DNA of 64,000 bases from an uncultured Candidatus Saccharibacteria bacterium (GTDB lineage Bacteria > Patescibacteriota > Saccharimonadia > Saccharimonadales > UBA10212), in NCBI GenBank assembly GCA_964448095.1, contig CAYUUT010000005.1:3306-67305 (forward strand). The letters run 5' to 3'. The position numbers and the translations under genes are program-made. Of the stretch, positions 2,485 through 28,424 are shown one piece after another; positions within the stretch are counted from its first letter, which is position 1; the number at the start of each line of letters is the position of its first letter. The notes under the pieces were generated by a model that worked only from the letters and a program-made list of their open reading frames with translations, ran no database searches and had not been told where the DNA came from.

Positions 2485-2562
2485 TTTGGTTTTGGATTTC
2501 TGGAGGTCATATTAACATAAATTGCCCTACCCGTAAAAGCCGGTCGTATATAACTGTTCCGC

Positions 2563-2584: not shown

Positions 2585-2592
2585 TAATTGTT

Positions 2593-3183: not shown

Positions 3184-3205
3184 TTTACCGAACCTGAGAA
3201 TGAGC

Positions 3206-3214
3206 TGATATAAT
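3206..3214 (+). promoter_or_regulatory. extended -10 element TGaTATAAT
   Basis: tgatataat ends 25 nt upstream of the ATG at 3240. The identical 9-mer recurs at 7561..7569. Confidence 0.4.
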
Positions 3215-3239
3215 TTGACCGTTAGTCAAATTAGTTATT

Positions 3240-14237: not shown

Positions 14238-14279
14238 ACTATATTCTACTCTGTTTAACCCATGAGGGCGAGTGTTGTA

Positions 14280-14309
14280 ATTATAACATGTTTATGCTAA
14301 ACGTGTCAA
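14280..14309 (-). promoter_or_regulatory. consensus-like promoter upstream of ftsK
   Basis: Minus strand reads TTGACA-18nt-TATAAT, with TGt immediately before the -10. Confidence 0.5.
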
Positions 14310-14315
14310 GCTAAA

Positions 14316-14720
14316 CTACGCGGCTTTGTCTATTTGTCTGTAACGAGTTTGGCGTTTAATTGCATCGAACACCAGAGTTGGACCCACTAAACCCTCTCGG
14401 CGCGTTCTCTCGACATGTTGAAGTGCCCAAGCCCTGTCTTCGTCTCCTAGCTCGTTCAGCTCGTCTAGAGCTTGGTCCCACAGAGTATCTTCCACCACGG
14501 CTTCAAGGCCCGGGGTAACACTAGGATGAAAATATGCGTTCTTGGCGGGTTCATTTCCTGAGATTAACGGCCTCGCGCCATTGGCATCAATAGGTACAAC
14601 TTCAAGCTCGCCGCCTATAAGATCCCGTCCTATACCTAAAATAAGGTCATTCTCTGTGGTCCGGTTGCCATAATAGTCCAAACGCCGCTGACCACCTGAG
14701 TGTGAAGAAAGTTCGCTCAT
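14316..14720 (-). CDS. hypothetical protein
   Basis: 134 aa, SD AAGGGAttaaaatcATG. No family recognised. Confidence 0.5.
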   Translation of the reverse strand: MSELSSHSGGQRRLDYYGNRTTENDLILGIGRDLIGGELEVVPIDANGARPLISGNEPAKNAYFHPSVTPGLEAVVEDTLWDQALDELNELGDEDRAWALQHVERTRREGLVGPTLVFDAIKRQTRYRQIDKAA

Positions 14721-14810
14721 GATTTTAATCCCTTATTTATTTCCAGTCTTTATTTTGACTGACCTAGTCTGGTTATACGCCCAGCCAAATAACTTGTCAA
14801 ACCAGCAACG

Positions 14811-15980
14811 CTATGCCGCCCTCTCAAAGACCAGCCACTCACCCTCTTGCATAACACCTTGGCTTTTTATACGTATTGCCGGCTGGTTAGTTACTCTGCC
14901 TATCTGCCGGGCTTCTATACCAAATTCCGCTGCGACTTCAATCATTCTGTCGGGTTCAGCGGTAATTCCAACCAGACCAGTGCCCATATTGATAGTAGAG
15001 TAGATCTCTTCATCAGATACTTGGGCTATCCTTTGGACCTCGTTCATTATCGGCAGCGGTTCTAAGGGATTATCAATAAGAGCTCCATAACCCGATGGCT
15101 CAAGTGCGCGCCCTAGCTTACCCGGCTGGCCGCCTCCGGTAATATGCGCGAAAGCGGCGACATCAGCCCTGGGCGCTCGATTAATATCGTAACCGCCGGT
15201 TAGTTCGACCATAAGTTTTGTGTAAATTCTGGATGGATAGTTAACTTGCTCACCTAAAGGTATATTGCCGAGTTTTCTAAGCTTTTTATCGTGCCATTTG
15301 GCGCCGTAGCGTTCAGCTAGCGCACTGCGAACCAGACTTAAGCCGTTGGAGCGGAAACCATCTTCTTTGAACCCCACCAAAGCTTGTCCCGGCTCGACCT
15401 TTAAACCTGTTAAGAAGCGGCTGCGATGAGTCAGCGAAGTCACAGCGACGGACCAATTATAATTGAAGCGGCCGTATCCGTTTACCCGATTGCCAAGTTC
15501 GGCCACTTCTCCCCTGAGCATCACGATTCCGGCGGCCTCACAGGCCTCTATAAGCCCGGAGGCAAGTTCGCCTATGGCTTTATAGGTTTCGGGCTTATCC
15601 CTCAATTTACGAACGTCAATAACATTAGAGCCGAAGATTGGCTCAAAACCTTCCGCGGCCGGGTCGTCAGCGCCCATTGCTATAAGATTGAAGGCTGAGG
15701 TAGCGTGATCTCCGATTCTCTCTGAGATTTCGATTTTGGTGCCGATACCATCAGTTGGTTGGTCCAGCATAAGGTTTTCAAGATCATGACCCTCCAAAGC
15801 TGTTAACGAGATTGCCCGGGCGCTGGTGAAAGAATCACTAACGGCTTCTACCTGCCCAAACTTCCCTTTACGGTTAACCCAAGTTTGCCTTGAGGCATCT
15901 GCCATCGTCTTGGAGAAGTAGTCGCCAAGCGACAGGTTGACACCGGACTGCTCATAAGTAAGAGGCTTACGGTTGGCCAT
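14811..15980 (-). CDS. purM: phosphoribosylformylglycinamidine cyclo-ligase (AIR synthetase)
   Basis: LTYEQSGVNLSLGD, DGIGTK and a PurM-type C-terminal domain, within the pur operon. Confidence 0.8.
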   Translation of the reverse strand: MANRKPLTYEQSGVNLSLGDYFSKTMADASRQTWVNRKGKFGQVEAVSDSFTSARAISLTALEGHDLENLMLDQPTDGIGTKIEISERIGDHATSAFNLIAMGADDPAAEGFEPIFGSNVIDVRKLRDKPETYKAIGELASGLIEACEAAGIVMLRGEVAELGNRVNGYGRFNYNWSVAVTSLTHRSRFLTGLKVEPGQALVGFKEDGFRSNGLSLVRSALAERYGAKWHDKKLRKLGNIPLGEQVNYPSRIYTKLMVELTGGYDINRAPRADVAAFAHITGGGQPGKLGRALEPSGYGALIDNPLEPLPIMNEVQRIAQVSDEEIYSTINMGTGLVGITAEPDRMIEVAAEFGIEARQIGRVTNQPAIRIKSQGVMQEGEWLVFERAA

Positions 15981-16766
15981 TTATACCTCCTTGGTGTAAT
16001 TTACGATACCATTGAAAATCACAGCTGCGGCCGACCGTGCTGCGACTGTTCGGGTTCTATTGGGGTGAAAGGCCGACACTGAGCGTTCCGGATGCGGCAT
16101 CATTCCGACAATCAAACCACTGGGGTCGCAGACCCCCGCAATGTTGCCAGCCGAACCGCTGGGATTATAGGGGTATACAGCCAGTCCGCCGGGATTTTTA
16201 GGGTCAATATAACGAAACAACAACTGGCCGTTTTGTTCCATGTCTTGCATAACAGCTGGTTCGGCAACGAACTGGCCTTCGCCGTGGGCAGTCTGTATGG
16301 GAAAACTGGCTTCCCCAAAATCTTCCGGTTGAAAAAATGGCGATACCGATGGTTGCGGCTCCAGCTCTACCCAACGGCAAACAAAGTGCCCAATCTGATT
16401 ATCGGCTAAAGCGGCCGTCTGCCGACCTAATTCTCCACCAGGTATTAAGCCTGAGCGTACTTGGACTTGGAAGCCATTGCAAATACCGATTATCGGTTTA
16501 GCAGCATCAATGAATCGCTGTAGGTCGTCAGATAAGCGGGTGGTCAGCTCATTAGCCAGAATTTTTCCGGCTGCTACGTCGTCGCCATAAGAAAAGCCGC
16601 CGGGCAATCCCAATCCCTGGAAGTTGTCCAGACTTACATCGCCAGCGCGCAGTTGGTTGACGTGTACGATACTTGCGCTGGCACCCGAAACCTCGAAAGC
16701 GTGAGCCAGCTCCATATCACAATTGGTCCCGTCGGTCTTTAGAACGCAGATTTCCGGCCTAATCAT
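15981..16766 (-). CDS. purQ: FGAM synthase, glutaminase subunit
   Basis: GICNGFQ nucleophile elbow and HPERS motif. 4-nt overlap with the upstream purL segment. Confidence 0.85.
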   Translation of the reverse strand: MIRPEICVLKTDGTNCDMELAHAFEVSGASASIVHVNQLRAGDVSLDNFQGLGLPGGFSYGDDVAAGKILANELTTRLSDDLQRFIDAAKPIIGICNGFQVQVRSGLIPGGELGRQTAALADNQIGHFVCRWVELEPQPSVSPFFQPEDFGEASFPIQTAHGEGQFVAEPAVMQDMEQNGQLLFRYIDPKNPGGLAVYPYNPSGSAGNIAGVCDPSGLIVGMMPHPERSVSAFHPNRTRTVAARSAAAVIFNGIVNYTKEV

Positions 16767-17755
16767 TGGAATATCTCCTGAAGCGGTTTTTGCCAGGCAT
16801 TTTTAAGCGCCTCGGTAGACGCATAAAACAGCGGTTTATCGTGTGAGACGCTAATTAGATTGGTGTCGTTAGCTTTTTTATATGTGGTTCTGCCCACTAC
16901 TGCGTGTGGTACACCGGCGAATAGCTCTTCGGCCTGGGCCTCGTCGCCTACTTCAATGACAAAGCAACCGGCGGTTTCGCTGAACAGCATAACCTCTGGA
17001 TCCTGGTCGGCCGGCAGTTTTATGTCAGCGCCGCAATCGCCGCCAAAACACATTTCGCCGATGGCTGTAATCATGCCTCCCTCGCTAATATCGTGACAGG
17101 CCAGTACCTTACCGCTGGCTATACTGGTCTGGACTATCTCCAAAATCTTTGGCAGATTTTCGGTGTCCACCAGCGGTACATGGGCGCTACTGCCCTCAGC
17201 CACATCGTAATAGGCCGAACCGCCCATGTTCTGGCTGAGTTCACCAACTAGGACTAGAGTCGACCCCGGTTTTTTAATATCTGTAGTCATGGTTTTCTCC
17301 ACGTCCGGGATTCGGCCAAACATCGAGGCGCAGTAAACTGGTGGAATTTCTATGACTTCGACCACTTCGTCTTGTTCATTCCGGCGTCGATAGGTCGAAG
17401 ATAAGCTGTCTTTGCCGGAAATTACCGGCACTTCAAGCAGGTGCATCATGTCGACCGAAGCATCGACTGAAAGGTCTAGTGAGCCCATGGCCTGTGAGTC
17501 TGGGAACGGCCAAATAAAATTGCCCACTAGGGCCGCTTCGGCAATATTACCCCCGGCTGATACATAATTGGCCGCCGCCTCGGCAATCGCCCAGCGTGTG
17601 CCTTCGTAAGGGTCTAGGCGGTTCAAGATGGGATTCATACCATGGGACTGGACCACCCCATAAGGCTTATCAAGTAACGGCCGAACCACTAAGGCGTCGT
17701 TTGGACCCTGCTGGGTCGTGCCGCCGAACCGCCGCACGACAATGGCCCCCAGCAC
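16763..17755 (-). CDS. purL: FGAM synthase PurL, C-terminal half (same frame as 17816..19621, separated by one TAA)
   Basis: GPNDALVVRPL..GVVQSHGMNP and later AIR-synthase-like repeats. The 60 nt between the two ORFs are open in the same frame. Confidence 0.75.
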   Translation of the reverse strand: MLGAIVVRRFGGTTQQGPNDALVVRPLLDKPYGVVQSHGMNPILNRLDPYEGTRWAIAEAAANYVSAGGNIAEAALVGNFIWPFPDSQAMGSLDLSVDASVDMMHLLEVPVISGKDSLSSTYRRRNEQDEVVEVIEIPPVYCASMFGRIPDVEKTMTTDIKKPGSTLVLVGELSQNMGGSAYYDVAEGSSAHVPLVDTENLPKILEIVQTSIASGKVLACHDISEGGMITAIGEMCFGGDCGADIKLPADQDPEVMLFSETAGCFVIEVGDEAQAEELFAGVPHAVVGRTTYKKANDTNLISVSHDKPLFYASTEALKNAWQKPLQEIFQ

Positions 17756-17815
17756 GCCCTGGTGAAACGGGCGGGCAAATGATTCTGTTGATGAAACGGT
17801 TCCGGGGGTAAAAAA

Positions 17816-19621
17816 TTAAATGACTCGCCAATACCACTCTATAGCGCTAGTTGGGCGCGGCGGCTTCTTCTCTCCCACTAATGGCCGTTCCCAGTGAGCC
17901 GTCATGACTCGCTGTGGTAAGCCGTTCTTTAGAAATTCATAATCCAGTTCTGCCACATTTTGCTGACCATAATTAACGGTCAGGCTATGACTGCCGTCAA
18001 ACTCGCCTAAAACTGCTGCCTCAACATTATATTTAGCGCAAGTCGCGATAAAACTATCGACGTTCTCTGGCGCTATGGCAGCCACCATCCTTTCCTGTGA
18101 TTCGCTCATCCAGATTTCCCAGGGTGCTAAACCGGGGTACTTTAGCGGCACTTTGGCGAGGTCGACAGTTGCGCCGATATCCTCGCCTAACTCGCCGATG
18201 GCCGATGAAAATCCTGCCGCTCCACAATCGGTTATGGCTCGGATATAGTCTAAATCTCTAGCTTCTAACAATGCGTCAAACATGCGTTTCTCTTCTATGG
18301 CATTGCCAATTTGCACGGCGCTGGAGTTAATTTGCGCTGTGTTGTCGGTCATTTCTCCGGAGCTGAAAGTAGCGCCATGGATGCCGTCACGGCCAGTGCG
18401 GCCGCCAATTGCCACCACTAAATCACCTAGTTGCGGCTCGCCTTTTCGGGCCCGAATTTCCGGCATGATGCCGTAAGCGCCCACGATAACAGATGGCTTA
18501 GCTCGGAAATCTTCATGATAATGAACCGAGCCGTTGGCAGTTGGGATACCCATACGGTTGCCGTAGTCGCACACGCCTTGAACGACTCTCCTCTGCAAAT
18601 AATCAGGGCGAAGTGTTCCTGGTGGTAATTTGCTAGGATCGAGGTCCGGCGGAGCGAAACAGAACATGTCAGTCGAGATAATATTTTTAGCGCCCTGGCC
18701 GGTTCCGGCAATATCGCGAAAGACCCCGCCGCTGCCAGTCATCGCGCCACCGTAAGGCTCGACTGCTGAAGGGCTATTGTGGGTTTCAACTTTTCCGCAA
18801 ATCGCTTGGCCGTCATAAAAACGTATGACTCCGGAATTATCACCGAACGCCGAAATTACCAGGTCGCCAAAATGCTCCTTAGCGGCTTCTCTGATTCGAG
18901 TAAACAGAGGTGGCTTTACAACCCCGTCCACTACCACTTCACCATTGAAGGTCTTGTGGCCGCAGTGTTCACTCCACCGGCCGGCGATAATCTCCAGTTC
19001 GCAGTCAGTAGGTTCTCTGCCCTGGCTGCGAAAATATTCTTGAATAACTTTCATTTCTTGTAAGTCCAAAAAAAGTTTCCCGGCTGATAGTTCATTCAAT
19101 TGTTCAGGCATAGCGTTAATTATCGGCACGGTCTTGACTGGCCCGACCTGGCCTTCAAAACGAAGGCTTTCAGGCGGTTCGGTAACCACATGTTGGACAA
19201 TTTTGTTGACCAATAAACCGCCAACAATCGCATCGACTTGTGCTGGACTAATGTTGCCTTCAAATGTATAGCGAGTTGAAGAATCAGCGGCAGTTAAATC
19301 GATGCCTATATCGGCAGCCGCTTTCAGGATAGAAGCGGCTGCCGGATTCATCACGCCGGGTTGATAAGCAACTTCTACGGTGTCAGGGTCATCATTTGGC
19401 TTGGTGTCTAGCTTGAAACTCTCAGTCACAGGATCGCTCAATAATTTGACCGCTAAAGCCTCTGCTTCTGACTCAGTTGTCCCCTCCAGGCGGTAGACCT
19501 TGGCTGTGCGGACTGCGGTTAAGTTATCTATCCCAAGAGTCCGCCGGGCTTCTTGAGCAACTCCCCGACCTGCGGGGTCGTCGTCTGTGGACGTTACTAT
19601 AACTTCATGAATTTTGCTCAC
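17816..19621 (-). CDS. purL: tandem PurS-like domains fused to PurL N-terminal half
   Basis: Two PurS-like repeats sit upstream of the PurL core, which contains SEHCGHKTF, GRTGRDGIHGATFSS and SESQERM. The ORF ends at TAA 17816..17818. Confidence 0.8.
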   Translation of the reverse strand: MSKIHEVIVTSTDDDPAGRGVAQEARRTLGIDNLTAVRTAKVYRLEGTTESEAEALAVKLLSDPVTESFKLDTKPNDDPDTVEVAYQPGVMNPAAASILKAAADIGIDLTAADSSTRYTFEGNISPAQVDAIVGGLLVNKIVQHVVTEPPESLRFEGQVGPVKTVPIINAMPEQLNELSAGKLFLDLQEMKVIQEYFRSQGREPTDCELEIIAGRWSEHCGHKTFNGEVVVDGVVKPPLFTRIREAAKEHFGDLVISAFGDNSGVIRFYDGQAICGKVETHNSPSAVEPYGGAMTGSGGVFRDIAGTGQGAKNIISTDMFCFAPPDLDPSKLPPGTLRPDYLQRRVVQGVCDYGNRMGIPTANGSVHYHEDFRAKPSVIVGAYGIMPEIRARKGEPQLGDLVVAIGGRTGRDGIHGATFSSGEMTDNTAQINSSAVQIGNAIEEKRMFDALLEARDLDYIRAITDCGAAGFSSAIGELGEDIGATVDLAKVPLKYPGLAPWEIWMSESQERMVAAIAPENVDSFIATCAKYNVEAAVLGEFDGSHSLTVNYGQQNVAELDYEFLKNGLPQRVMTAHWERPLVGEKKPPRPTSAIEWYWRVI

Positions 19622-20309
19622 GCCACTCCGCCTGATCTTTTAAGAACTGATCGATATCTGTGGGCAATTCCCGCTTTTCTACTAGCTGGGTTCGGGCAAA
19701 AAGTGCTTGCGGGCTGTCGTCCGGCTCCACGGGTACGCGGTGCTTGGCTATAATCGGGCCTTGGTCCACGCCAGCCGAAACCAGATGTACTGTGTGGGCA
19801 GAATACTTACGGCCTTTCGCTAAAACTTTCTTTGCGGCTTCAACGCCGGCAGTATCAGTCGTCAAAGGCAGTGGTCCGGGATGAGTGTTACTCATTCGGC
19901 CTTGGTAGATAGAGTCGTAAACAGGCTGGAATCCGTACTCGTCCAATAAATCGCCCGTCACAATCTTCATGTAGCCCATGAGTGCCACATGGTCAATTCC
20001 GCGCGCCGCTAGAGCTTCACAGATTTTTTCAGATTCCCACGGAGTTTGCCCTCTTGTGGCTTCCTCGCCCCTCCTAAGGGGGTATTGCCTACCGCTTATG
20101 TATAGAGTTTCTGCTCCCAACCTGTGGGCTTTGTTCAAGAATTTTACTCGACCAAATACTCCTGCGTCTGGATTATTACTGATAACCAGTGGCACCTCTA
20201 GGTCGGCCCTTTTGGATACGGTCGCCAGGATGAATGCCTCGGCGGTCGTACCGCCTCCCGAGGCTAGAATTGCCACCTGCGGCTTATGCAGCTCGCCCAT
20301 AACCCGCAA
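19605..20309 (-). CDS. purN: phosphoribosylglycinamide formyltransferase-like
   Basis: VAILASGGGTTAEAF and NTHPGPLP formyltransferase motifs, within the pur operon. Confidence 0.7.
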   Translation of the reverse strand: MRVMGELHKPQVAILASGGGTTAEAFILATVSKRADLEVPLVISNNPDAGVFGRVKFLNKAHRLGAETLYISGRQYPLRRGEEATRGQTPWESEKICEALAARGIDHVALMGYMKIVTGDLLDEYGFQPVYDSIYQGRMSNTHPGPLPLTTDTAGVEAAKKVLAKGRKYSAHTVHLVSAGVDQGPIIAKHRVPVEPDDSPQALFARTQLVEKRELPTDIDQFLKDQAEWREQNS

Positions 20310-21759
20310 GTTGTTGTCTTAGCTCGCGCCATTTGGCCACTTCGTTGTGGGTTTGCTCAACTGTTAGGCCAAGGTAGGCATGTTCAGGGTGCAAAACAAT
20401 CTCTTGTTCTGCCTCTGTCATCAGTGGCCAATAGGTACTTGCTATTTCTTCGTCGTCGATAACCGCCTCTCCTAAGTTTTGATCTTCATCCAGAGCTTTT
20501 TGAACAATTCTCTTAGCGGCATTATGCGCGGCGGGATGACCGTATTGACGCAAGTAAACTTGCAAGGGTTCGCTACCAATTGCGCCCTTTTGGGCTCCAA
20601 GATTTCTATCCAGATTGACGGTATCCACCTCGAGCTTAGGCAATATTCGGTTAAGAGTTTTGGCCATATGCGCCACTTCTGCCAGCATGATTCCATGAAA
20701 CCTGCCGGCCGAAGAATCTCGAAGATCACGTTGGTGCTCGCTGGTCAGATTTAGGTAGGAGGTCAGGACCTGTGGTATCACCACTCTCTCAAAACCAGCG
20801 ACTTGCTCAAAGGTTATGGGATTTCGCTTTTGCGGCATTGCCGATGAGCCTGTAGCGTGTTCTCTGTCGAAAGGCTCACCAACTTCACCAATTTCTGTGC
20901 GTTGGAGGTTCCGCATATCGTTAGCTATTTGAGCCATAATGCCCGCGGTGATGCCAAGTTCGGCTAGTAAGCGGGTGGTGTTTTCTGCAGGCACTATCTG
21001 CGTGGCGTGCTCGCAAGGCTCAAGTCCTAGCTTTGCTAGTAAAGCTGCCTCAAAAACTATTGGATTATCCATTATTAATGAGGAGGCGTTGTATCCGCCA
21101 ACGGCACCAGAAAATTTACCCTGCAAGCCGAAAGTGTGCCGATCTAATTCCGTGGCCGATTCACCTAAACGGCCTAAGTAGCGTGAGACTCCGAAGCCGA
21201 AAGTGATTGGTACCGCGTGCTGTCCGTGAGTTCGGCCTATCTGGGGCGTATCTGCGTACCTTTCCGCTAAATCGGCTAAATTGTCGCCAAGCTTTACAAG
21301 CCTTGGCATTACCAGCCCGTTCATCGCTTCGCGGTATTGCAAGGCGTTGGCTGTAGAAACTATGTCATACGAGGTCGCCGTTGCGTGGACCCAAGGCTTA
21401 GCCTCATCGCTAATTTGTGCCGATATGGCTTCGGTTAAAGCTTTGATGTCGTGGCGTGTCCCGCGGCCATCGAATTCTCCCCGTCCGTATTCACGGTCGT
21501 CTACTTCCTTGGCGCTAACATTTGCGCAAGCCGCTTCAATTTCCATGGCGACTTCTCTGGAGCAAATATCAAAATCGGCCAGAGTGTGAGCCAGTGCGGC
21601 TTCGACATAAGCCTGTAAAGCGATTCGGGTTTCGCCCCCCAGATACTTTTCGGCCTCAGGATCTCTGTAGCGGCCGTCCATAGGATCAATATCACCATAA
21701 TAATCAGAACGAGATTCTGCTGCTGGGGGAATAAAGGCACCTAAATTGTGTTCAGCCAT
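20284..21759 (-). CDS. purB: adenylosuccinate lyase
   Basis: Lyase-1 signature GSSAMPQKRNP, TSYD and RTHGQHA motifs, within the pur operon. Confidence 0.85.
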   Translation of the reverse strand: MAEHNLGAFIPPAAESRSDYYGDIDPMDGRYRDPEAEKYLGGETRIALQAYVEAALAHTLADFDICSREVAMEIEAACANVSAKEVDDREYGRGEFDGRGTRHDIKALTEAISAQISDEAKPWVHATATSYDIVSTANALQYREAMNGLVMPRLVKLGDNLADLAERYADTPQIGRTHGQHAVPITFGFGVSRYLGRLGESATELDRHTFGLQGKFSGAVGGYNASSLIMDNPIVFEAALLAKLGLEPCEHATQIVPAENTTRLLAELGITAGIMAQIANDMRNLQRTEIGEVGEPFDREHATGSSAMPQKRNPITFEQVAGFERVVIPQVLTSYLNLTSEHQRDLRDSSAGRFHGIMLAEVAHMAKTLNRILPKLEVDTVNLDRNLGAQKGAIGSEPLQVYLRQYGHPAAHNAAKRIVQKALDEDQNLGEAVIDDEEIASTYWPLMTEAEQEIVLHPEHAYLGLTVEQTHNEVAKWRELRQQLAGYGRAA

Positions 21760-21772
21760 GCCCGCCTAACTT

Positions 21773-21801
21773 TTATAATATTTATAGATTAACTTGTACA
21801 A
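21773..21801 (-). promoter_or_regulatory. candidate purB promoter
   Basis: Minus strand reads TTGTAC-17nt-TTATAA, ending 13 nt before the purB ATG. Confidence 0.4.
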
Positions 21802-21803
21802 AT

Positions 21804-21838
21804 AACACCTGCAAGCATAAGCAGATTTAATAATAAGT
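21804..21838. repeat. left copy of the sequence bracketing the purE-purC cassette
   Basis: AACACC-TGCAAGCATAAGC-AGATTTA-ATAATAAGT matches 23405..23476 apart from two blocks present only in the right copy. Confidence 0.6.
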
Positions 21839-21842
21839 CTTG

Positions 21843-21880
21843 CCGGGGGTGTGTAGCGTATTCCGCATACACACCCCCGG
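21843..21880 (-). terminator. GC-rich hairpin downstream of purC
   Basis: ccgggggtgtgta ... tacacacccccgg forms a 13-bp stem, plus an inner gcg/cgc pairing. Confidence 0.6.
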
Positions 21881-21898
21881 TATCGTCCTCCACTTCCC

Positions 21899-22783
21899 CT
21901 ACCAGACGAGCGGGTCGCTGCCCGTCAGACGCCCAGCGATGTTGCCGTACGTGGCTCGGGTGCGGTCGATGAGCTCGCCGGGCATCTCCGGCGCCGGCGG
22001 CTTCTTGTCCCAGCCGAGGCTTTCGTAGTAGTCGCGAACCAGCTGCTTGTCCATCGACTTGGGCGGTTTGCCCACTTCGTGGGTCTCAACTGCGACATAC
22101 CGCGATGAATCCGGTGTGAGCACCTCGTCGCCGAGCGTCAGCTCGCCCGTCTCCGGGTCGAGGCCGAACTCGAACTTGGTGTCCACCAGGATGATGCCCT
22201 GCTCCAGCGCGTAGGCTGCGCCGGCGACGTAGAGCTCCAGCGCTCGATCGCGTACTCGCTCGGCGAGCACCTGGTCTCCCAGAATCCGCACCATGCCCTC
22301 GAAGTCGATGTTCTCGTCGTGCCCGACTTCGGCCTTGGTCGAAGGCGTGAACAGCGGCTCCGGGAACTTCTCCATCTCCTGCATGTCGGCCGGTAGTTCG
22401 ATGCCGCTGACCATGCCGGTTCGCTGGTAGTCCTTCCAGCCCGAGCCGGTGAGGTAGCCGCGGACGATGGCCTCGACCGGCAGCATGTTCAGCCGCCGGA
22501 CGACCATCGTTCTTGGGGCGTCCTCGGAATCGAGCCAGCCGGGCGTGTGCCAGCCGTCGGGCGAGATCAGGTGATGCGGCATGACCTCGCCGACTGGCGT
22601 CTGCGTCAGCCAGTGCTGGGTCATGTGCGTCAGCACGATGCCCTTGCCGGGAACCGGCTGGGGTAGTACGACGTCGAACACGCTGATGCGGTCGCTAGCG
22701 ATCACGACCAACATGTCCGGCTCGTCACCGGGGTAGGTATCGCGCACCTTCCCCCGATGAAGCATTTCCGGCTTAGCCGTCAT
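21899..22783 (-). CDS. purC: SAICAR synthetase (GC-rich, long form)
   Basis: LHRGKVRDTY, ASDRISVFD, LVDTKFEFG and TPDSSRY motifs. Markedly higher GC than purB or purH by eye. Confidence 0.85.
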   Translation of the reverse strand: MTAKPEMLHRGKVRDTYPGDEPDMLVVIASDRISVFDVVLPQPVPGKGIVLTHMTQHWLTQTPVGEVMPHHLISPDGWHTPGWLDSEDAPRTMVVRRLNMLPVEAIVRGYLTGSGWKDYQRTGMVSGIELPADMQEMEKFPEPLFTPSTKAEVGHDENIDFEGMVRILGDQVLAERVRDRALELYVAGAAYALEQGIILVDTKFEFGLDPETGELTLGDEVLTPDSSRYVAVETHEVGKPPKSMDKQLVRDYYESLGWDKKPPAPEMPGELIDRTRATYGNIAGRLTGSDPLVW

Positions 22784-22792
22784 GTGCTCCTC

Positions 22793-23266
22793 CTAGAGCT
22801 CGATGTTGAAGTTGGCCGGCTTGGCGTTGAGATCCAGGTAGGCCCGAAGCCGCCTGGCGACTTCGTGGTCGGTTGCCGCCAGTATCTGTCCGGCGGCGAT
22901 GGCGGCGTTCTTGAGGCCTGCCTTGCCTACTCCCGCCGTCAGGACTGGTACGCCCGGCGGCATGTACAGGCAGGAGTCGATGCCGTTCTCGTCGAGCGGC
23001 ACTCCGATGACCGGCTTGCTCATGCCCGTGTTGCCGGCGATAGCGCCCGGCAGGGCGGTGGCCATTCCGGCGACGGCGATGAAGACCAAGGTTCCGTCTT
23101 CGCACGACGCTTTGCAGAATGCCGCGAGCTCGTCGGGGTTGCGGTGAGCCGAGCAGATTGAAACCGCCCGGTCCGCCCCCAGTTGATCGAGAATGTCCAG
23201 CATTCCCGATTCCTTGACGACACCCTCGTCGCTCTTGCTTCCTATTACTACCTGTACCTTTGGCAC
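22793..23266 (-). CDS. purE: N5-CAIR mutase (class I PurE-like, SAHR motif)
   Basis: VQVVIGSKSD, SAHRNP and GVPVLTAGVG motifs. GTG start after GGAAGGA. The purE stop is followed by GAGGAGcacATG of purC. Confidence 0.85.
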   Translation of the reverse strand: MPKVQVVIGSKSDEGVVKESGMLDILDQLGADRAVSICSAHRNPDELAAFCKASCEDGTLVFIAVAGMATALPGAIAGNTGMSKPVIGVPLDENGIDSCLYMPPGVPVLTAGVGKAGLKNAAIAAGQILAATDHEVARRLRAYLDLNAKPANFNIEL

Positions 23267-23325
23267 GGTGTGTCCTTCCTGTCTGGATGGATGCGCGCTT
23301 ACTCGCGTCTTTCGTCAAACTGTTT

Positions 23326-23434
23326 CGATAGGGTTCCTCCCATCGTAGTGAAGGTCCGATTACAAGCGGTTAAACCTGCATAGCAAAATCATCACACGGG
23401 GTAAAACACTTTGCAAGCATGAGCGTTACCGAGA
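23326..23434 (+). promoter_or_regulatory. ykkC-yxkD-family riboswitch-like motif (guanidine-I / ppGpp / PRPP class) upstream of purH
   Basis: In order and with plausible spacing: TAGGGTTCC (23329..37), GGTCCGA (23353..59) and ACACGG (23394..99). These are followed by GGTAA...TTACC (23400..04 pairs with 23426..30) and GAGA. Matches my recollection of the ykkC consensus blocks CUAGGGUUCC / GGUCCGAGAG / ACACGG..hairpin..GGAGA. Confidence 0.45.
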
Positions 23435-23476
23435 TTTATAGGTTTGCAATACCTAGCCCAGTCATTAATAATAAGT
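23405..23476. repeat. right copy of the sequence bracketing the purE-purC cassette
   Basis: AACACTTTGCAAGCATGAGC[gttaccg]AGATTTA[taggtttgcaatacctagcccagtcatta]ATAATAAGT. The bracketed blocks are absent from the left copy. Confidence 0.6.
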
Positions 23477-23518
23477 TTTATAAAACAGCTGGGTGGTGCA
23501 GCCTAAGGAGGTAGTGCC

Positions 23519-25141
23519 ATGGCCGATAAAGAAAATGCTCTAATCTCGGTTTATAACAAAAATGGACTGGAAGAATTTGCCGATGGCTTGGTGGCTCAAG
23601 GCTTTAATATCTACGCTTCCGGCGGCACAGCCAGAAGAATTAGCGAAGCCGATATCCCGGTCACCGACGTAGCGGAATTAATAGGCGGTGGTTCTATTCT
23701 GGGTCACCGAGTCGTCACTTTATCGCGTGAAGTCCATGCCGCTCTCTTGGCCCAAAAGACACCTGAAGACCTTGAGGAGCTGGAACGTTTAGGGATACCT
23801 TTGATAGATCTGGTCGCCGTAGATATGTATCCTTTGCGTGATGAGTTAGCCAAGCCCGACAGCACAGAGGAAAGTGTCACGGAACAGACTGATATCGGTG
23901 GCCCAACTATGTTACGGGCCGCCGCCAAAGGTCGCCGGATTGTCTTATCAAGAGTTGAGCAGCGAGCCGAAGTTCTGGAGTGGCTCAAAAATGGCCGGCC
24001 CGACGAGGAAGAATTCCGCCGCCGTTTAGCAGGTATCGCTGAATACGAAGTCGCGGCCTATGTACTGGAGTCGGCCAGGTATTTGGGAGGCCCGGCCGTT
24101 TTTGGCTTTATGGGCCAAAGGGTCTCGACGCCGCTTTATGGTGAAAATCCATGGCAAGGCAACGCTGGAATCTATATGGACAGAAACAGCACTAACCCCT
24201 TGGCCTTCCACCGTTTTGAACAGCATGGCGGCATTGAAACCAGCTACAACAACGTGGTTGAATTTGCTGAGCGGATGACCCAGACCGTAGCCCACATTGC
24301 GGCTGGTTTTGAAAAGAATTTTGGCGAAGTGCCAGCTTTGGCGATTGGCGTTAAGCACGGCAATCCGTGTGGTGCCGCATACGCCAACACCCCCCATGAA
24401 GCCATTAGAAAGATGATTGAGGGTGACGAGCGGGCAATTTTTGGCGGTTCTATTATGTTGAATTTTGAACTGGACGGGGAGCTAGCGGAACTACTGGTGA
24501 GCCATGGCATGCCGAGTGACCAGAAACGTTTGTTGGATATCGTCATAGCCGCCGGCGCCGATGAAGACACGATTGATATTTTGCAGCGCAAAACCGGCAA
24601 ACTAAGACTTTTGACTAATCCGGCGCTAGCAGAGCTAGGCGTCGATTCGTTGGACACAAAACCACGATTTAGGTATATACCGGACGGGGCCGCGGTTCAG
24701 GATAATTACACCTACGTTCCAAACTTAAAGCGCGATGCAGCAATATTGGCCGGCGGCTGGGTAAGTCCTGAGCAAGAGCGCGATTTAGTTTTGGCCTGGG
24801 GGGTTGGCTCAACTAGCAATAGCAATACCATAACCTTAGTTAAAGACGGCAAGTTAATAGGTAACGGCGTAGGCCAACAGGATAGAGTCGGAGCAGCCGA
24901 ATTAGCCATAAAGCGAGCTAAAGATGCAGGACATAATGTGGAAGGAGCTTGCGCCTACAGTGATAGTTTCTTCCCTTATCCGGATGGGCCTCTAATCCTC
25001 GCGGAAGCTGGTATCGGAATAATTCTGTCCAGCAGCGGCTCTGTAAAAGACTCGGAGATAGCCGAGGCTTTAGCAGCCAAAAAATTGCAGAGCTTCTTAA
25101 CCCTCCCCGACAAAGAAGCCCGCGGCTTCTTCGGCCACTAG
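23519..25141 (+). CDS. purH: bifunctional AICAR transformylase / IMP cyclohydrolase
   Basis: SD AAGGAGGtagtgccATG. MGS-like N-terminus ALISVYNKNGLEEFA..ASGGTA and an AICARFT domain (GVKHGNPCGAA, GQQDRV). Confidence 0.9.
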   Translation: MADKENALISVYNKNGLEEFADGLVAQGFNIYASGGTARRISEADIPVTDVAELIGGGSILGHRVVTLSREVHAALLAQKTPEDLEELERLGIPLIDLVAVDMYPLRDELAKPDSTEESVTEQTDIGGPTMLRAAAKGRRIVLSRVEQRAEVLEWLKNGRPDEEEFRRRLAGIAEYEVAAYVLESARYLGGPAVFGFMGQRVSTPLYGENPWQGNAGIYMDRNSTNPLAFHRFEQHGGIETSYNNVVEFAERMTQTVAHIAAGFEKNFGEVPALAIGVKHGNPCGAAYANTPHEAIRKMIEGDERAIFGGSIMLNFELDGELAELLVSHGMPSDQKRLLDIVIAAGADEDTIDILQRKTGKLRLLTNPALAELGVDSLDTKPRFRYIPDGAAVQDNYTYVPNLKRDAAILAGGWVSPEQERDLVLAWGVGSTSNSNTITLVKDGKLIGNGVGQQDRVGAAELAIKRAKDAGHNVEGACAYSDSFFPYPDGPLILAEAGIGIILSSSGSVKDSEIAEALAAKKLQSFLTLPDKEARGFFGH

Positions 25142-25217
25142 TCGACGCAGGCGTCTTGGTTCAGCAGACGCTGGCGCATTTGGGCAAAGCGGCGCTGCTG
25201 CTCCAGGGCGATTTCTT
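25138..25217. repeat. 80-nt copy of the rnj 3' coding end (75/80 identical to 26352..26431 by hand alignment)
   Basis: It begins at the CTAG that also holds the purH stop. On the minus strand it would encode ...EIALEQQRRFAQMRQRLLNQDACVD*. Confidence 0.85.
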
Positions 25218-25233
25218 GCAAAAACCTTCAAAC

Positions 25234-26241
25234 CTAATGGGTGTTCGCCAAATCAACCATTTCTTGAATTGTTGCCGGTTGCAGGCTGTCCAATATTTGC
25301 TTTAGCTGATCTTTATCAAATATCTGCTGGCTCGAGAAACTGATTAAAGTCGAGCCAATCTTACAGAAACCGTATGTTGATGATACTGGCTGATCACCTG
25401 CTCCTACCTGTGCGTAGTAAACCTGGCAGCCACTTGAGGATTTACCAATATCTGTGCAGGTAAAGTTGTAGTAACCTGAATCCGGGTCCGGGTAGCCGGC
25501 AGTCGGACTCATACACCAATTGGGTGGATTATAATTTGCGGGAGCTTTAAATTCATTGAGCTTGCTATAATCATCGAGCCTAATCTCGTAAAACGGCTGA
25601 GTAGGCTCATATTTATTAAAAAAAGTAGATGCAACAGCATAACCGGGTTTATAAAGCTGGGTATTTAAGGACTTAAGCTGGGTGGCTAAACGGTGTTTAT
25701 CACCAAGATTATCCAGGGTCTTAATAAAAGGCGGCATGATGAGGATAAAAATAAATATTTCAATAGCGGCTAGACCAATTCCTGAAGTCCAGTCACTGAA
25801 TCTAAGTTTTTGGTCAAACAGCTTGATTTCAATTGGCAGGATGATGACGGCAAGAACAGCAGTTATGGCGAAGCCGAATAATTCTTGCCTGCCTCCGGAA
25901 TTAAACGATTCGGGTCTGAGCTGATAGCTAAGTGTGGCTCCAATAACATAGGCCGGGACAGTCGTAAACAGAAAAGCATATATTGCCAAAGCTCTTCTAC
26001 TGGTTACCAGCCATAGCATCAAGAATATTCCTGAAACTATGTAGGCTATGAATCCATCTATTATTGAGCTAAGAACGTCCCCTATACCACAAGCTATGCC
26101 GGGCCCTTCACAGGCAGCGGGATTATTAATCGAGTAGGATGCGACCGCAAAGGCAATCGCAAAAGCTGCCACGGCAGTAATAGCTGAGCCAATCAGCCAG
26201 TATTTTTTGAGCTGCCCATTGTTGGGCAGTTCGGTCTTCAT
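25234..26241 (-). CDS. multi-pass membrane protein with a Cys-containing extracytoplasmic C-terminal domain (hypothetical)
   Basis: 335 aa. About 5-6 hydrophobic helices, then a soluble domain (NPPNWCMSPTAGYPDPDSGYYNFTCTDIGKSSSGCQVYY). Lies between the two 80-nt repeats. Confidence 0.6.
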   Translation of the reverse strand: MKTELPNNGQLKKYWLIGSAITAVAAFAIAFAVASYSINNPAACEGPGIACGIGDVLSSIIDGFIAYIVSGIFLMLWLVTSRRALAIYAFLFTTVPAYVIGATLSYQLRPESFNSGGRQELFGFAITAVLAVIILPIEIKLFDQKLRFSDWTSGIGLAAIEIFIFILIMPPFIKTLDNLGDKHRLATQLKSLNTQLYKPGYAVASTFFNKYEPTQPFYEIRLDDYSKLNEFKAPANYNPPNWCMSPTAGYPDPDSGYYNFTCTDIGKSSSGCQVYYAQVGAGDQPVSSTYGFCKIGSTLISFSSQQIFDKDQLKQILDSLQPATIQEMVDLANTH

Positions 26242-26351
26242 AGCAATTATTAAATAGTAAAGGCTTTATTTATGCTAATGTTAGATTCACGCAAAGGCTC
26301 GCTAATTGGCGTGGAGTGAGCTGAATATCTGGCGAGAAAATAGAGCAAACG

Positions 26352-26431
26352 CTAGTCGACGCGGGCGTCTTGGTTCAGCAGCCGCTGGCGCATTTGGGCG
26401 AAGCGGCGCTGTTGCTCTAGGGCGATTTCTT
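26352..26431. repeat. second copy of the 80-nt repeat (authentic rnj 3' end)
   Basis: See 25138..25217. The five mismatches fall at offsets 11, 30, 48, 60 and 66. Confidence 0.85.
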
Positions 26432-28424
26432 CGGGCGATTTCTGAGTCGCTGCGGCTGGTTCGCCGTTTTGGCCGCTGCCGTTAGCCGGTTTTTCTACCA
26501 TTCGGCCGCCAATAACGTTTACCACCGGAATGACAATCGGGCTACGTTGGGTCTGTTCGTACAGAAAGTGCGTAACGTAATCCTTTAACTCGGCCTTAAA
26601 GCGGTCTAAGTCGACGCGCTTATAGCGCTGAACTACCGCCCGGCGCAGCTCATTGCGAAAAGCGTTCATTAACTCTTCGTTGTCCTTCATGTAAATGAAG
26701 CCGCGGCTGATGATATCCGGACTGGTCAATAAAGTACCATTCTTTTTATCGATAGTTAGGACCACTGCCACTAAGCCTTCTTCGGCCATCAATACCCGGT
26801 CCTTAACTACGATAGTCGAAACAATCGCGCCGGTTTGGTCCACCAGAATGGTCCCGTGCGGTACTTGACCGTCTAGCTCCATTTTGTCTTTGGTGAAGGT
26901 CACAACGTCGCCGTTGCCGATGTTTGCAGTGTTAGCTCGGGGTATGCCGGCTTCAACCGCCACATCAATATGGTATTTCTTAGCGGTGTAATCACCGTAG
27001 ATAGGCAGGAAGAACTTGGGCTTGAGCATCTCAATCATTTCGCGGTACTCGTCCTGACTGCCGTGGCCGGAAACGTGCAATGGACCAACGTGGTCCACGT
27101 CGTGGCTTTCGTGCCGGTATACATGCACGCCCTTTTTCAGGAACTCGTCTACCATGGACCTAATCAATGCGTCATTGCCGGTGTAAGGAATTGGCGAGCC
27201 GGATAATATTACAGTATCCTGAGCTTCCAATTTTACGTGTCTGTGATCGCCGGTGCTCATCCGTTGTAGGGCGGAATTAGGCTCTCCCTGGACTCCTGTA
27301 CAAACCACCACTATCTCATCAGGCTTCATGGTAGCTACGGCGGCAATTGGCACGAAAGTTCCTTGGGGAATCTTCATAAAGCCATTGCGGACCGCCATCT
27401 CCAGTGTGCTGACTAGGCTGCGGCCGTCCATTGCGACCTTCCGGCCGTGTTTGACGGCGGCGTTAACAACCATCTGCACCCGGTTAACATTGGTTGAAAA
27501 CATTGCCAAGAAGACCCGGCCTTCGGCGCCTTCCATAATGTCGATGATACTTTGTTCGATTATCGACTCGGAAGGTGTGCGCCCGGGGCGGTCACTGGTG
27601 GTGCTTTCGCTCATCAGCAGCAAAACCCCTTCGCGGCCGAGCTCCATGAAGCGGTCCATATCGGTTTTTTCGTGGTCCAGCGGATTGGGGTCAAAGCGGA
27701 AGTCGCCGGTATTGACCAACCGCCCCACGGGCGTATCGATGACTATTGAGGTACTTCCCGGGATAGAGTGGGTTACCCTAACTAACTCGACGAAGAACTC
27801 GCCGATTTTCAAACGTTCGTGGGTAGTTTCGTTCATGACCACGGTTTTCAGCTCAAAGCCATCAGGCATTGGCACGCCGAAGTTTTGGAAGATTTCCTCT
27901 ACCCGGCCGATGGTAAACTTACTGCCGTAAACCGGAACGTTATATTTGGGTAGGATGTGTGGCAGGGCGCCGATGTGGTCCAGGTGCCCGTGGGTAATCA
28001 CGAAGGCTTTGATTTTGCCTTTGATCTGGTCCAGGTAGGTGGAATCGGCGATACCATAGTTGATGCCAGGTAAATCGACGCCTAGGTCATTGCCGCAGTC
28101 GATGACGATGGCGTCATTTTTATATTCAATGACCATCATATTCTTGGATCCACCGCTATCCATGCCGCCCAGACCCACAATCTTCAGGCGCGGGCTGTCA
28201 TCTATCTGGTTAGCGCGGCGCGGCTTTTGGTCGACTAGCGGCGCGGACAGGTATTGGTTGGCCACGCGGGTGGCGTCTTGGACCGCTTGTTTTTGGGCGC
28301 GAATAGCCGCGCCGCGGCTAACGTTGCGTCCGGTAGAGGTTATTTTACCTCTGTTATTGTTCCCTTGTTTAGGGTTGCCGCCGGGTTTTGCCGGATGGCT
28401 GGGTTTGTTATTTTTTGGATTCAT
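26352..28424 (-). CDS. rnj: ribonuclease J with a basic N-terminal extension
   Basis: Metallo-beta-lactamase HGHLDHIG motif, beta-CASP region and a C-terminal domain. N-terminal ~80 aa is Lys/Asn/Gly-rich. Confidence 0.85.
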   Translation of the reverse strand: MNPKNNKPSHPAKPGGNPKQGNNNRGKITSTGRNVSRGAAIRAQKQAVQDATRVANQYLSAPLVDQKPRRANQIDDSPRLKIVGLGGMDSGGSKNMMVIEYKNDAIVIDCGNDLGVDLPGINYGIADSTYLDQIKGKIKAFVITHGHLDHIGALPHILPKYNVPVYGSKFTIGRVEEIFQNFGVPMPDGFELKTVVMNETTHERLKIGEFFVELVRVTHSIPGSTSIVIDTPVGRLVNTGDFRFDPNPLDHEKTDMDRFMELGREGVLLLMSESTTSDRPGRTPSESIIEQSIIDIMEGAEGRVFLAMFSTNVNRVQMVVNAAVKHGRKVAMDGRSLVSTLEMAVRNGFMKIPQGTFVPIAAVATMKPDEIVVVCTGVQGEPNSALQRMSTGDHRHVKLEAQDTVILSGSPIPYTGNDALIRSMVDEFLKKGVHVYRHESHDVDHVGPLHVSGHGSQDEYREMIEMLKPKFFLPIYGDYTAKKYHIDVAVEAGIPRANTANIGNGDVVTFTKDKMELDGQVPHGTILVDQTGAIVSTIVVKDRVLMAEEGLVAVVLTIDKKNGTLLTSPDIISRGFIYMKDNEELMNAFRNELRRAVVQRYKRVDLDRFKAELKDYVTHFLYEQTQRSPIVIPVVNVIGGRMVEKPANGSGQNGEPAAATQKSPEEIALEQQRRFAQMRQRLLNQDARVD

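Follow-up and report, generated by a model that had tools for sequence, protein, structure and literature searches.

A duplicated rnj 3' end beside a purine-synthesis island in a Saccharibacterium as a probable scar of homology-anchored gene insertion

We analyzed a stretch of 64,000 nucleotides from a Saccharibacterium, hereafter the window, with attention to the 3' end of rnj, an essential core gene for RNA degradation. Its product carries the metallo-beta-lactamase, beta-CASP and RNase J C-terminal domains (PF00753, PF22505 and PF17770), all above their cut-offs, and the gene sits in a conserved pnp-udg-rnj synteny. Between ftsK and rnj lie a small ORF, purM, purQ, purL (with a PurS domain), purN, purB, purC, purE, purH, a partial copy of the rnj 3' end (T1) and a gene that we call X. 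The features are listed by position in the window.

12024..14237, minus strand: ftsK, a conserved gene bounding the far side of the slot between rnj and ftsK (Pfam; homologue 3' of rnj in 65 relatives)
14238..26351, no strand: lineage-specific slot content, 12.1 kb (comparison with relatives; Pfam)
21843..23411, minus strand: purC-purE cassette of foreign composition, GC about 0.65 (composition; its own GC-rich hairpin)
23519..25141, plus strand: purH (Pfam AICARFT_IMPCHas and MGS)
25138..25217, minus strand: T1, a non-functional rnj 3'-end remnant between the purH and X stops (75/80 identity to the rnj tail)
25218..25233, no strand: 16 nt from the X stop to T1 (abrupt end of homology between the copies)
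25234..26241, minus strand: gene X, a 335-aa membrane protein (ORF; 5 TM segments; C-terminal beta-rich domain with four Cys)
26242..26351, minus strand: rnj-X spacer, 110 nt (weak promoter-like TTGCGT-16-TAAATA)
26352..26431, minus strand: T2, the functional rnj 3' end and other copy of the repeat (alignment)
26352..28424, minus strand: rnj, RNase J, 690 aa (Pfam RNase_J_b_CASP, RNase_J_C and Lactamase_B)

The last 80 nt of rnj (26352-26431) recur as a direct repeat at 25138-25217, with 75 of 80 positions identical (94%) and a start-to-start spacing of 1214. A first-pass annotation of the DNA had reported this repeat, and both a repeat search and blastn of the rnj tail against the window (second copy at E = 2e-28) bore it out. 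When the window was compared with itself, the pair was the sole long, high-identity repeat in 64 kb. The longest exact run common to T1 and T2 is 18 nt, and the mismatches are spread across the whole 80 nt. A further repeat, D4 (51430-51472 and 53826-53868), lies directly upstream of a minus-strand gene in both copies; we rejected it as an insertion scar, since the copies resemble similar promoter/leader regions.

T1 comprises 25 sense codons, the stop codon and 2 nt of a further codon. It encodes EIALEQQRRFAQMRQRLLNQDACVD*, with a stop codon just 5' and no start codon. Many relatives encode exactly the corresponding T2 peptide, EIALEQQRRFAQMRQRLLNQDARVD*, although their nucleotide sequences diverge by 10-30%. 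T1 has no indels relative to T2. Four of the five differences between the copies are synonymous third positions in the rnj frame, and the fifth, non-synonymous and located in T1, replaces an Arg with Cys; all 40 of the relatives' tails listed have Arg here, in keeping with the earlier description of the copy as a decaying remnant. Relatives vary at the four synonymous sites, which are hence uninformative for polarizing the changes. T1 had no Rfam match and no significant fold (fold z-scores of -1.4 and -0.3), and no function of its own was detected in these Rfam and fold tests. We conclude that T1 is a non-functional remnant of the rnj 3' end.

The last base of the rnj stop codon (25138 and 26352) is also the last at which the copies are similar; beyond it lies purH on one side and the rnj-X spacer on the other. 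As had been noted, T1 begins at the CTAG that holds the purH stop: the TAG of purH (25139-25141) overlaps the T1 stop within CTAG 25138-25141. PurH has a natural C-terminus (...GFFGH*), the same as in L083. In L095, which is among the closest relatives (rnj 86%), a convergent NUDIX gene and rnj overlap by their stops in an identical CTAG. That the boundary falls exactly on the rnj stop, together with the natural C-terminus of PurH, supports the view that T1 was formerly the true end of an rnj abutting purH.

A contig end that was collapsed or duplicated could mimic such a repeat, as the first-pass annotation had cautioned, and so could a chimeric join. The window record is not error-free, for purL contains a suspicious patch at 17730-17821, which we tested and rejected as an inversion. 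However, independent assemblies of three other samples from two pipelines (L092, ENA ERZ27245399; L093, Logan SRR8465028; L094, ENA ERZ27245403) align gaplessly to the window, with 0 SNPs in the covered part of 25138-26431. L092 spans both copies; L093 and L094 cover the remnant together with most, or nearly all, of X. Additionally, the copies differ at 5 sites, their longest exact run of 18 nt is too short to confuse an assembler, and both flanking genes are intact. Because three independent assemblies have the same structure, we conclude that the repeat is not an assembly artefact, an explanation that has become barely credible.

Between the copies lie 1134 bp (25218-26351) with one ORF, gene X. 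Counting its hydrophobic segments (five) and its Cys residues (six: 44 and 51 in the first loop; 243, 262, 272 and 293 in the C-terminal domain) agreed with the initial description of a single 335-aa polytopic, Cys-containing membrane protein. X had no Pfam or PHROG match, and its AF2 model (pLDDT 75) gave no significant PDB fold match (best E = 0.05). Its GC3 is 0.44, compared to 0.59-0.64 in core genes. The promoter-like TTGCGT-16-TAAATA proposed upstream of X is present, but it matches the consensus weakly and was not flagged by a promoter scan. Searches for homologues and their contexts returned one clear homologue (P0002, 35%) and 14 remote ones. The clear homologue, X', lies directly 3' of rnj in another Saccharibacterium, L081, where it starts 60 nt after rnj in the order pnp-udg-rnj-X'-115aa-ftsK, with no repeat and with no integrase on the contig. 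The rnj-X spacer and the rnj-X' spacer of L081 have the motif GC(A/T)TAAATAAA in common, and we infer that the 110-nt spacer came in together with X.

We compared the locus with 80 related rnj loci at 60-80% identity and with closer relatives at 83-88%. In 65 of the 80, ftsK follows rnj across a gap of 59-4889 bp filled with unrelated genes; in closer relatives the contents are a NUDIX gene and a 110-aa ORF, tRNA genes, or a 212-aa ORF. On this comparative evidence, the rnj-ftsK interval is a slot whose content differs by lineage in Saccharibacteria. Neither pur genes nor X occur within 10 kb of rnj in any of the 80 relatives. Given this, and with ftsK as the neighbor in 65, the adjacency of purH and rnj is itself not ancestral. 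The original proposal that the two genes were once convergent neighbors with overlapping stops thus gains support from the T1 boundary, the purH end and L095, but not as the ancestral state. No second rnj tail was found in 74 relatives, nor was there an independent second case at the rnj-ftsK slot.

The small ORF beside ftsK is known only from the same lineage. L101 (ERZ27294320) carries a mosaic pur island at 57-96% identity beside the same small ORF, on a contig that ends before purH. L092 differs from the window by 26 SNPs, which cease at the left edge of the island. The mosaic island and the SNP breakpoint indicate that the slot region recombines in nature. Besides the same strain, the closest relatives reach at most 88% in rnj and 80% in purH; the closest rnj genes carry other slot contents, and the closest purH genes sit elsewhere. 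The nearest purH homologues examined (79-80%, all Saccharibacteria) have a purB-HisPhos-purH context elsewhere in the genome, 2 of 3 beside ATP synthase genes, and a metagenome scan with purH returned only 53-61% relatives in other contexts. Sliding-window identity along rnj pointed to mosaicism, with relatives (at most 88%) too distant to place a breakpoint or donor tract.

An empty site would be expected to run from the purH 3' end through CTAGTCGACGC...GATTTCTT directly into CGGGCGATTTCTGAG. The comparison that the first-pass annotation had proposed yielded no relative with purH directly abutting a full rnj, among the 80 rnj loci, the purH metagenome scan, and the protein searches with their contexts. 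Protein searches with X, purH and rnj, and the contexts of their hits, likewise gave no donor with an X closer than 35%.

Hallmarks of mobile elements are missing from the locus. In agreement with the earlier remark that no recombinase is nearby, no integrase, transposase, excisionase, Phage_integrase, recombinase or resolvase domain was found in ORFs of at least 150 aa in the 64 kb. The cassette ends lack terminal inverted repeats, and searches for phage similarity gave no phage DNA match and no PHROG match. Features of integron cassettes were also lacking, with no integrase, no imperfect palindromic (attC-like) site at the cassette end and no Rfam or fold signal. Elsewhere, the 3' end of a tRNA-Ser gene has an 18-nt perfect copy 171 nt downstream of the tRNA, and site-specific integration may therefore act in this lineage.

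The purC-purE cassette had been thought to show a similar architecture and so to hint at a shared insertion mechanism. Its GC3 is 0.79-0.86, and its flanks have only short AT-rich motifs of marginal significance in common. The local alignment of the flanks scores 35 against a window background of 33.5, and 14 of 2000 shuffles as well as 6 of 300 AT-rich windows of real sequence reach the collinear-block statistic of the flanks. With the alignment near background and the statistic reached by shuffles and other AT-rich windows, we found no convincing bracketing repeat and rejected the flank similarity as a sign of a shared mechanism.

Taken together, we consider it probable, if well short of certain, that the 80-nt copy is the scar of a homology-anchored insertion between two alleles of the slot, by single crossover of a circularized fragment or by homology-facilitated illegitimate recombination (HFIR). 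The ancestor would have had the purine-synthesis island in the slot, with purH converging on rnj and the stops overlapping in CTAG. DNA from a related Saccharibacterium, with an X-family gene directly 3' of rnj, would then have entered the cell, most plausibly by natural transformation. That such a donor-type allele exists follows from L081, where the only clear X homologue lies directly after rnj with no repeat. At this end of the slot, the conserved last ~26 codons of rnj would have been the sole homology of both alleles. In one variant, a single crossover would have taken place with a circularized fragment bearing the rnj tail, the spacer and X; in the other, HFIR would have been anchored in rnj with an illegitimate join at 25217/25218, where we would place the junction. 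The incoming tail, T2, would complete a functional rnj, and the resident tail, T1, would be displaced while still attached to purH, which keeps its stop codon.

This scheme matches what is seen at the locus. Both copies are the rnj 3' end, a resident segment that the incoming DNA would carry too, and the repeat stops at the point where homology of the rnj-X and rnj-purH alleles runs out. The L081 adjacency, this boundary and the preponderance of synonymous over non-synonymous differences (4:1) agree with a combination of homologous and illegitimate recombination of two alleles. The upstream boundary of the repeat (-80) lies 12 nt inside a conserved block, a position that the favored model does not foresee. 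DNA with one-sided homology integrates by HFIR, although single crossover of circularized molecules is the more frequent route (PMC3240628), and in E. coli experiments single crossover duplicated 109-950 bp of the homologous locus (PMC3240628). Additionally, Saccharibacteria are naturally competent (PMC10187176, PMC10633639). As the searches found no empty-site relative and no donor with an X closer than 35%, we infer the direction (X into rnj-purH) and the order of the event. The route of DNA entry and the recombination variant that acted are likewise deduced rather than seen.

The reverse direction, which we regard as unlikely though worth serious thought, would start from an ancestor with the order rnj-X-...-ftsK. 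A pur island of ~11 kb would have come from a relative with purH abutting rnj, bringing the last 80 nt of the donor's rnj (T1) as a passenger, with a homology anchor on the ftsK side and an illegitimate join 16 nt after X. The native rnj-X adjacency in L081 agrees with this course, as do the L092/window SNP breakpoint at the left edge of the island and the diverged pur island beside the same small ORF in another lineage (L101), which indicates that pur-island alleles circulate; the stop-codon boundary and the synonymous differences are explained equally well. However, at least 11 kb would have to be imported, as opposed to about 1.2 kb. From a single crossover in the tail one would expect rnj-island-X and not the observed order, so that only the rarer HFIR fits, and because the small ORF is absent from all other relatives, the left anchor would have to be ftsK itself.

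The first-pass annotation had instead favored an unusually long target duplication. At the purH/rnj junction, foreign DNA would have been captured by a staggered break of ~80 nt or by break-induced replication with a template switch, and fill-in synthesis would have doubled the 80 nt before the copies diverged. Direct repeats on either side of a single, compositionally deviant gene (GC3 0.44), the lack of a recombinase and the weak collinear motif matches flanking purE-purC speak for such an event, but we find it improbable. A staggered-cut duplication would end at the last base of the rnj stop only by chance. In-situ duplication and neutral decay of T1 predict that 63% of differences are non-synonymous (P(<=1 of 5) = 0.068), and T1 lacks indels; with five differences (P = 0.07), the substitution pattern is only suggestive evidence against it. 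Nor would arbitrary capture foresee the native position of X-type genes after rnj elsewhere. As for the similarity of the purE-purC flanks, 6 of 300 other AT-rich windows equal it, and no other such duplication was found in the window or in 74 relatives. The native X' in L081, the boundary and the 4:1 substitutions thus leave no need for a target duplication. Slightly less probable again is the relic of an integrase-mediated, site-specific integration into the rnj 3' end, of the type of e14 or phage 21 at icd, in which later deletion of the integrase and the bulk of the element left X. An intact gene with a substitute tail, cargo and a displaced tail with mostly synonymous differences would be its signature, and the tRNA-Ser tail copy allows that site-specific integration may act in the lineage. 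Yet the 64 kb hold no integrase, excisionase or recombinase domain, only 1134 bp and one gene separate the repeats, X' in L081 has neither a duplication nor an integrase on its contig, there is no phage similarity, and the longest identical core is 18 nt. Lowest among these readings we place a genuine target duplication by an unrecognized, recombinase-independent cassette capture in Saccharibacteria, such as repair of long-staggered breaks coupled to transformation; if it were true, single genes or small cassettes would be loaded into gene-end junctions, and the purE-purC motifs, and perhaps the tRNA-Ser copy, would be further products. Of the initial interpretation, therefore, the rnj remnant, the purH-rnj abutment and the lack of a recombinase stand, but the target duplication, the ancestral state and the purE-purC parallel are not supported.

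The homology-anchored insertion has counterparts in known systems. As in single-crossover (Campbell-type) integration and HFIR, which has been described in naturally competent bacteria, foreign DNA lies beside a short homology, no dedicated recombinase is involved and the host group is competent; as in the single-crossover route, direct repeats of the homologous segment flank the insert. Unlike in the experiments, the homology here is only 80 nt and about 6% diverged, and the event is a natural one in an uncultivated Saccharibacterium. The event had to keep two abutting genes, a constraint that may account for the survival of this product. The locus also resembles e14 and phage 21 at icd in E. 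coli and elements at tRNA 3' ends, in that a substitute 3' end is supplied and the displaced end persists as a fragment beyond the insert; as at icd, the copies differ mainly at synonymous sites. Events of the e14/phage 21 type use an element-encoded tyrosine integrase and a defined core and bring inserts of many kb, whereas the present locus has no integrase, an insert of 1.1 kb and no identical core of more than 18 nt.

Direct repeats of a target flank the insertion here as they do at transposons and IS elements. Their target duplications usually measure 2-15 bp and start out identical, and such elements come with a transposase and terminal inverted repeats; the present repeat, by contrast, is 80 nt long and 94% identical, with neither feature. 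Unlike integron cassettes, the insert has no attC-like site and no integrase. With syntenic flanks and a content that varies by lineage, the rnj-ftsK interval is like the horizontal-transfer hotspots between core genes. Turnover at hotspots by flanking homologous recombination is normally scarless, unlike the present case, where one crossover in a very short homology would have left a scar. The repeat is most likely an ordinary recombination scar rather than the product of a new kind of mobile element, and no novel type of element emerges from the locus.

As a rare and datable trace, the scar records gene gain in a genome-reduced, uncultivated episymbiont. It suggests that a single gene was added at a variable slot through only about 80 nt of homology and without mobile-element machinery, which fits the competence of Saccharibacteria. 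The surroundings carry more weight than the repeat itself, as the same slot holds a patchwork purine-synthesis island whose purC-purE part is clearly foreign in composition. For CPR bacteria in general, complete de novo nucleotide pathways are described as often missing (PMC8407418). If both tails could be traced to two lineages, the locus would provide a worked example of the allele-by-allele assembly of metabolism in the Candidate Phyla Radiation.

The last 80 nt of rnj occur twice in the window as a direct repeat, with 75 of 80 positions identical and a start-to-start spacing of 1214 nt. The features that frame it are:

14238-26351: the interval between rnj and ftsK (the slot), 12.1 kb of lineage-specific DNA
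23519-25141, plus strand: purH, whose TAG stop lies inside the CTAG that opens the left-hand copy
25138-25217: left-hand copy, a remnant of the rnj 3' end
25234-26241, minus strand: X, a 335-aa ORF and the only one in the 1134 bp between the copies
26352-26431: right-hand copy, the final 25 sense codons and stop of the functional rnj
26352-28424, minus strand: rnj (RNase J, 690 aa), with Pfam beta-CASP, RNase_J_C and metallo-beta-lactamase domains

A blastn search of the window with the rnj tail, akin to the self-comparison suggested in the first-pass annotation, recovered the second copy at E = 2e-28. The other elements described there are also borne out: the 75/80 identity, the copy opening at the CTAG that holds the purH stop, and the 1134 bp carrying one gene for a polytopic, Cys-containing protein. 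This is the sole long, high-identity repeat within the 64-kb window, and the remnant has neither a significant fold nor an Rfam match. The edge of the repeat coincides exactly with the final base of the rnj stop; past it, one copy runs into purH and the other into the spacer between rnj and X. The C-terminus of PurH is natural (...GFFGH), and a homologue on another contig (L083) ends likewise.

The same structure is found in contigs of three other samples, made by two assembly pipelines: L092 (ENA ERZ27245399), L093 (Logan SRR8465028) and L094 (ENA ERZ27245403). Each aligns to the window without gaps and is free of SNPs over its share of 25138-26431, which is both copies in L092, and the remnant with most or nearly all of X in L093 and L094. 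The repeat structure is not an assembly artefact. That possibility, raised earlier, has virtually no probability given these contigs and a longest exact run of only 18 nt common to both copies.

By its RNase J the organism belongs to Saccharibacteria (Saccharimonadales), and we retrieved 80 related loci in which pnp-udg-rnj synteny is kept. In none of the 80 does purH, purB, purC, purE or X lie within 10 kb of rnj. Downstream of rnj, 65 of them carry a homologue of the window ORF at 12024-14237, ftsK, at 59-4889 bp from the rnj stop, and the intervening ORFs are unrelated between genomes. At this place the nearest rnj relatives that were found, at 86-88% protein identity, have, as alternatives, a convergent NUDIX gene with a 110-aa ORF, tRNA genes or a 212-aa ORF. 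These differing gaps and unrelated ORFs make the rnj-ftsK interval a variable slot. The tRNA genes belong to an 88% relative (L098, ~4400-4700), where one apparently has a long insertion between its halves. In the window the slot holds a 134-aa ORF restricted to this lineage, purM, purQ, purL (with a PurS domain), purN, purB, purC, purE, purH, the remnant and X. Core genes have a GC3 of 0.59-0.64, and the slot falls into three compositional classes: most pur genes (0.47-0.54), purC and purE (0.79-0.86) and X (0.44). The pur genes (14238-25141) make up a near-complete purine-synthesis cluster with a divergent purH, present at this locus in 0/80 relatives; purF and purD were not seen within the window. 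Among purH relatives, the closest ones examined show only purB-HisPhos-purH, located elsewhere and in two of three cases beside ATP synthase genes.

X contains five hydrophobic segments, and its six cysteines are all predicted to lie on one side of the membrane. The promoter-like TTGCGT-16-TAAATA reported earlier does exist upstream of it, but matches the consensus weakly and is absent from the promoter-scan output. X is nearly an orphan: a search of 5.8 billion proteins returned one homologue (P0002, 35% identity), and 14 more, all remote, came from exhaustive HMMER searching. Its AF2 model (pLDDT 75) had no significant PDB match. The first-pass annotation had proposed examining homologues in their genomic contexts, and P0002 repaid this. 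Its contig, L081, reads pnp-udg-rnj-X'-115aa-ftsK, with X' (the homologue) beginning 60 nt past the stop of an rnj whose product is 76% identical to that of the window, and no rnj-tail duplicate was found in L081. The rnj-X adjacency is thus native to another Saccharibacterium. In both genomes the GC3 of X is ~0.2 lower than that of rnj, so that low GC is a property of the X family and no proof of distant origin.

Since the remnant ends at the rnj stop and purH ends naturally, the remnant was once the real end of an rnj abutting purH, and the earlier proposal that the two genes were formerly convergent with overlapping stops holds. Such an overlap is not exotic: at 12061-12064 of L095 (rnj 86%), the stops of rnj and a convergent NUDIX gene overlap in CTAG, just as those of purH and the remnant do. 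The boundary falls where it would be expected if the repeat were homology common to an rnj-purH and an rnj-X allele, whereas a staggered-cut duplication would reach the last base of the rnj stop only by chance. Of the five differences between the copies, four fall at third codon positions of the rnj frame and are synonymous; the other gives the remnant a Cys in place of an Arg that all listed relatives have. Many relatives encode an identical tail peptide although their nucleotide sequences diverge by 10-30%, indicating that the functional copy can change only synonymously. Copying in situ with neutral decay of the remnant predicts ~63% non-synonymous differences, under which one or fewer in five has P = 0.068. 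The pattern, at five sites only, favours two alleles that may have diverged while both were coding.

We therefore lean, at somewhat better than even odds, toward the repeat being a scar that a homology-anchored insertion left behind, with two alternative slot alleles as partners. In the resident allele, purH would have converged on rnj with overlapping stops; a relative's DNA carrying rnj-spacer-X would then have entered, and the conserved rnj tail would have served recombination. Natural competence has been demonstrated in Saccharibacteria (PMC10187176, PMC10633639). A circularised fragment could have entered the chromosome by a single crossover, or homology-facilitated illegitimate recombination (HFIR) could have acted, anchored in rnj and with an illegitimate join at 25217/25218. 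Either route would yield the observed order (rnj body, right-hand copy, spacer, X, 16 nt, remnant, purH), and products without a restored rnj or purH stop would presumably be lost. In E. coli, DNA with one-sided homology mostly integrated by single crossover, duplicating 109-950 bp of the homologous locus (PMC3240628). The empty site suggested earlier, purH abutting an intact rnj, was not found in relatives; with neither this nor a close donor (nearest non-identical purH 80%, nearest rnj 88%), we infer the direction of the event.

In the mirror image, the pur island would have entered an rnj-X genome and brought an rnj tail along as a passenger. This would account equally well for boundary and substitutions, but it requires import of at least 11 kb and has only the rarer HFIR route available, and we consider it unlikely. 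The unusually long target duplication first proposed survives as a rival in the form of a long duplication in situ by an unknown mechanism; this is improbable given where the boundary falls, how the copies differ and the rnj-X adjacency native elsewhere. Slightly less probable again is an integrase relic of the icd/e14 type. The architecture is alike, but the insert is only 1.1 kb and no such element surrounds X' in L081. Window ORFs of at least 150 aa contain no integrase, transposase or resolvase domain, in agreement with the earlier remark that no recombinase is nearby; inverted repeats were not found at the cassette ends, nor were phage DNA similarity or PHROG matches.

Allele comparisons show that the region recombines in nature. 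On L101, a contig from another sample, purN-purL-purQ-purM form a second, diverged version of the island beside the same small ORF, collinear with that of the window (1-5656 versus 14290-19941), and nucleotide identity along these 5.7 kb ranges from 57% in purQ to 96% in the small ORF and purN end. These swings indicate allele mosaicism through recombination inside the island. Between L092 and the window there are 26 SNPs (2.2%) in 13548-14728, a stretch that takes in the 5' portion of ftsK together with the small ORF. From 14729 to 35141, through the island, X and rnj, the two are identical except for a purL patch, a SNP adjoining it and a single further SNP. The end of the SNPs at 14728 marks a population-level recombination breakpoint at the left edge of the island; L092 and L101 share alleles at 9 of 17 sites. 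Along rnj (26352-28424) the nearest relative also varies, being L095 for codons ~271-480 and L098 or L099 elsewhere, which suggests past between-lineage recombination within the gene. Within the purL patch (17730-17821, 92 nt) the window departs at 24 sites, mostly by transversions, from the sequence on which L092 and L093 agree. Its in-frame stop at 17816-17818 breaks the 952-aa PurL into ORFs of 601 and 330 aa. The patch probably reflects a local error of consensus or assembly in the window record; an inversion was tested and rejected.

The purC-purE cassette (21843-23411) is clearly foreign in composition (GC 0.63-0.65, GC3 0.79-0.86, neighbours ~0.5) and looks to have been acquired from a high-GC donor. 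A perfect 13-bp GC-rich hairpin downstream of purC (21843-21880) is the cassette's own. Relatives have a histidine-phosphatase gene between purB and purH, which purC-purE appears to replace; the purB-purH gap, too, is a replaceable position. The idea that this cassette shares the architecture and insertion mechanism of X found no backing: its flanks have in common only two short AT-rich blocks, TGCAAGCATRAGC and TTAATAATAAGTYTT, their local alignment scores 35, barely more than the 33.5 of the best against unrelated parts of the window, and their collinear-block statistic was equalled in 14 of 2000 shuffles and 6 of 300 real AT-rich windows.

Two weaker repeats lie elsewhere in the window:

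56992-57034 and 57163-57205, minus strand: 43-nt repeat, 79% identity
51430-51510 and 53826-53905: ~80-nt similarity, ~70-79%, directly upstream of two minus-strand transcription units

The former contains an 18-nt perfect copy (ATCCCTCCCTCTCCGCCA) of the 3' end of tRNA-Ser (57188-57278, minus strand), 171 nt downstream of it, and has the appearance of a relic attachment-site pair, or of a tRNA fragment that an integrative element left behind. The latter copies bracket DUF1361-argS and have the look of promoter and leader regions that were duplicated, not of insertion scars.

Overall, the original observation at rnj is confirmed and its interpretation only partly supported. The feature is a further example of a recombination scar of a known kind, set in a gene-gain hotspot with a patchwork purine island in a CPR bacterium.
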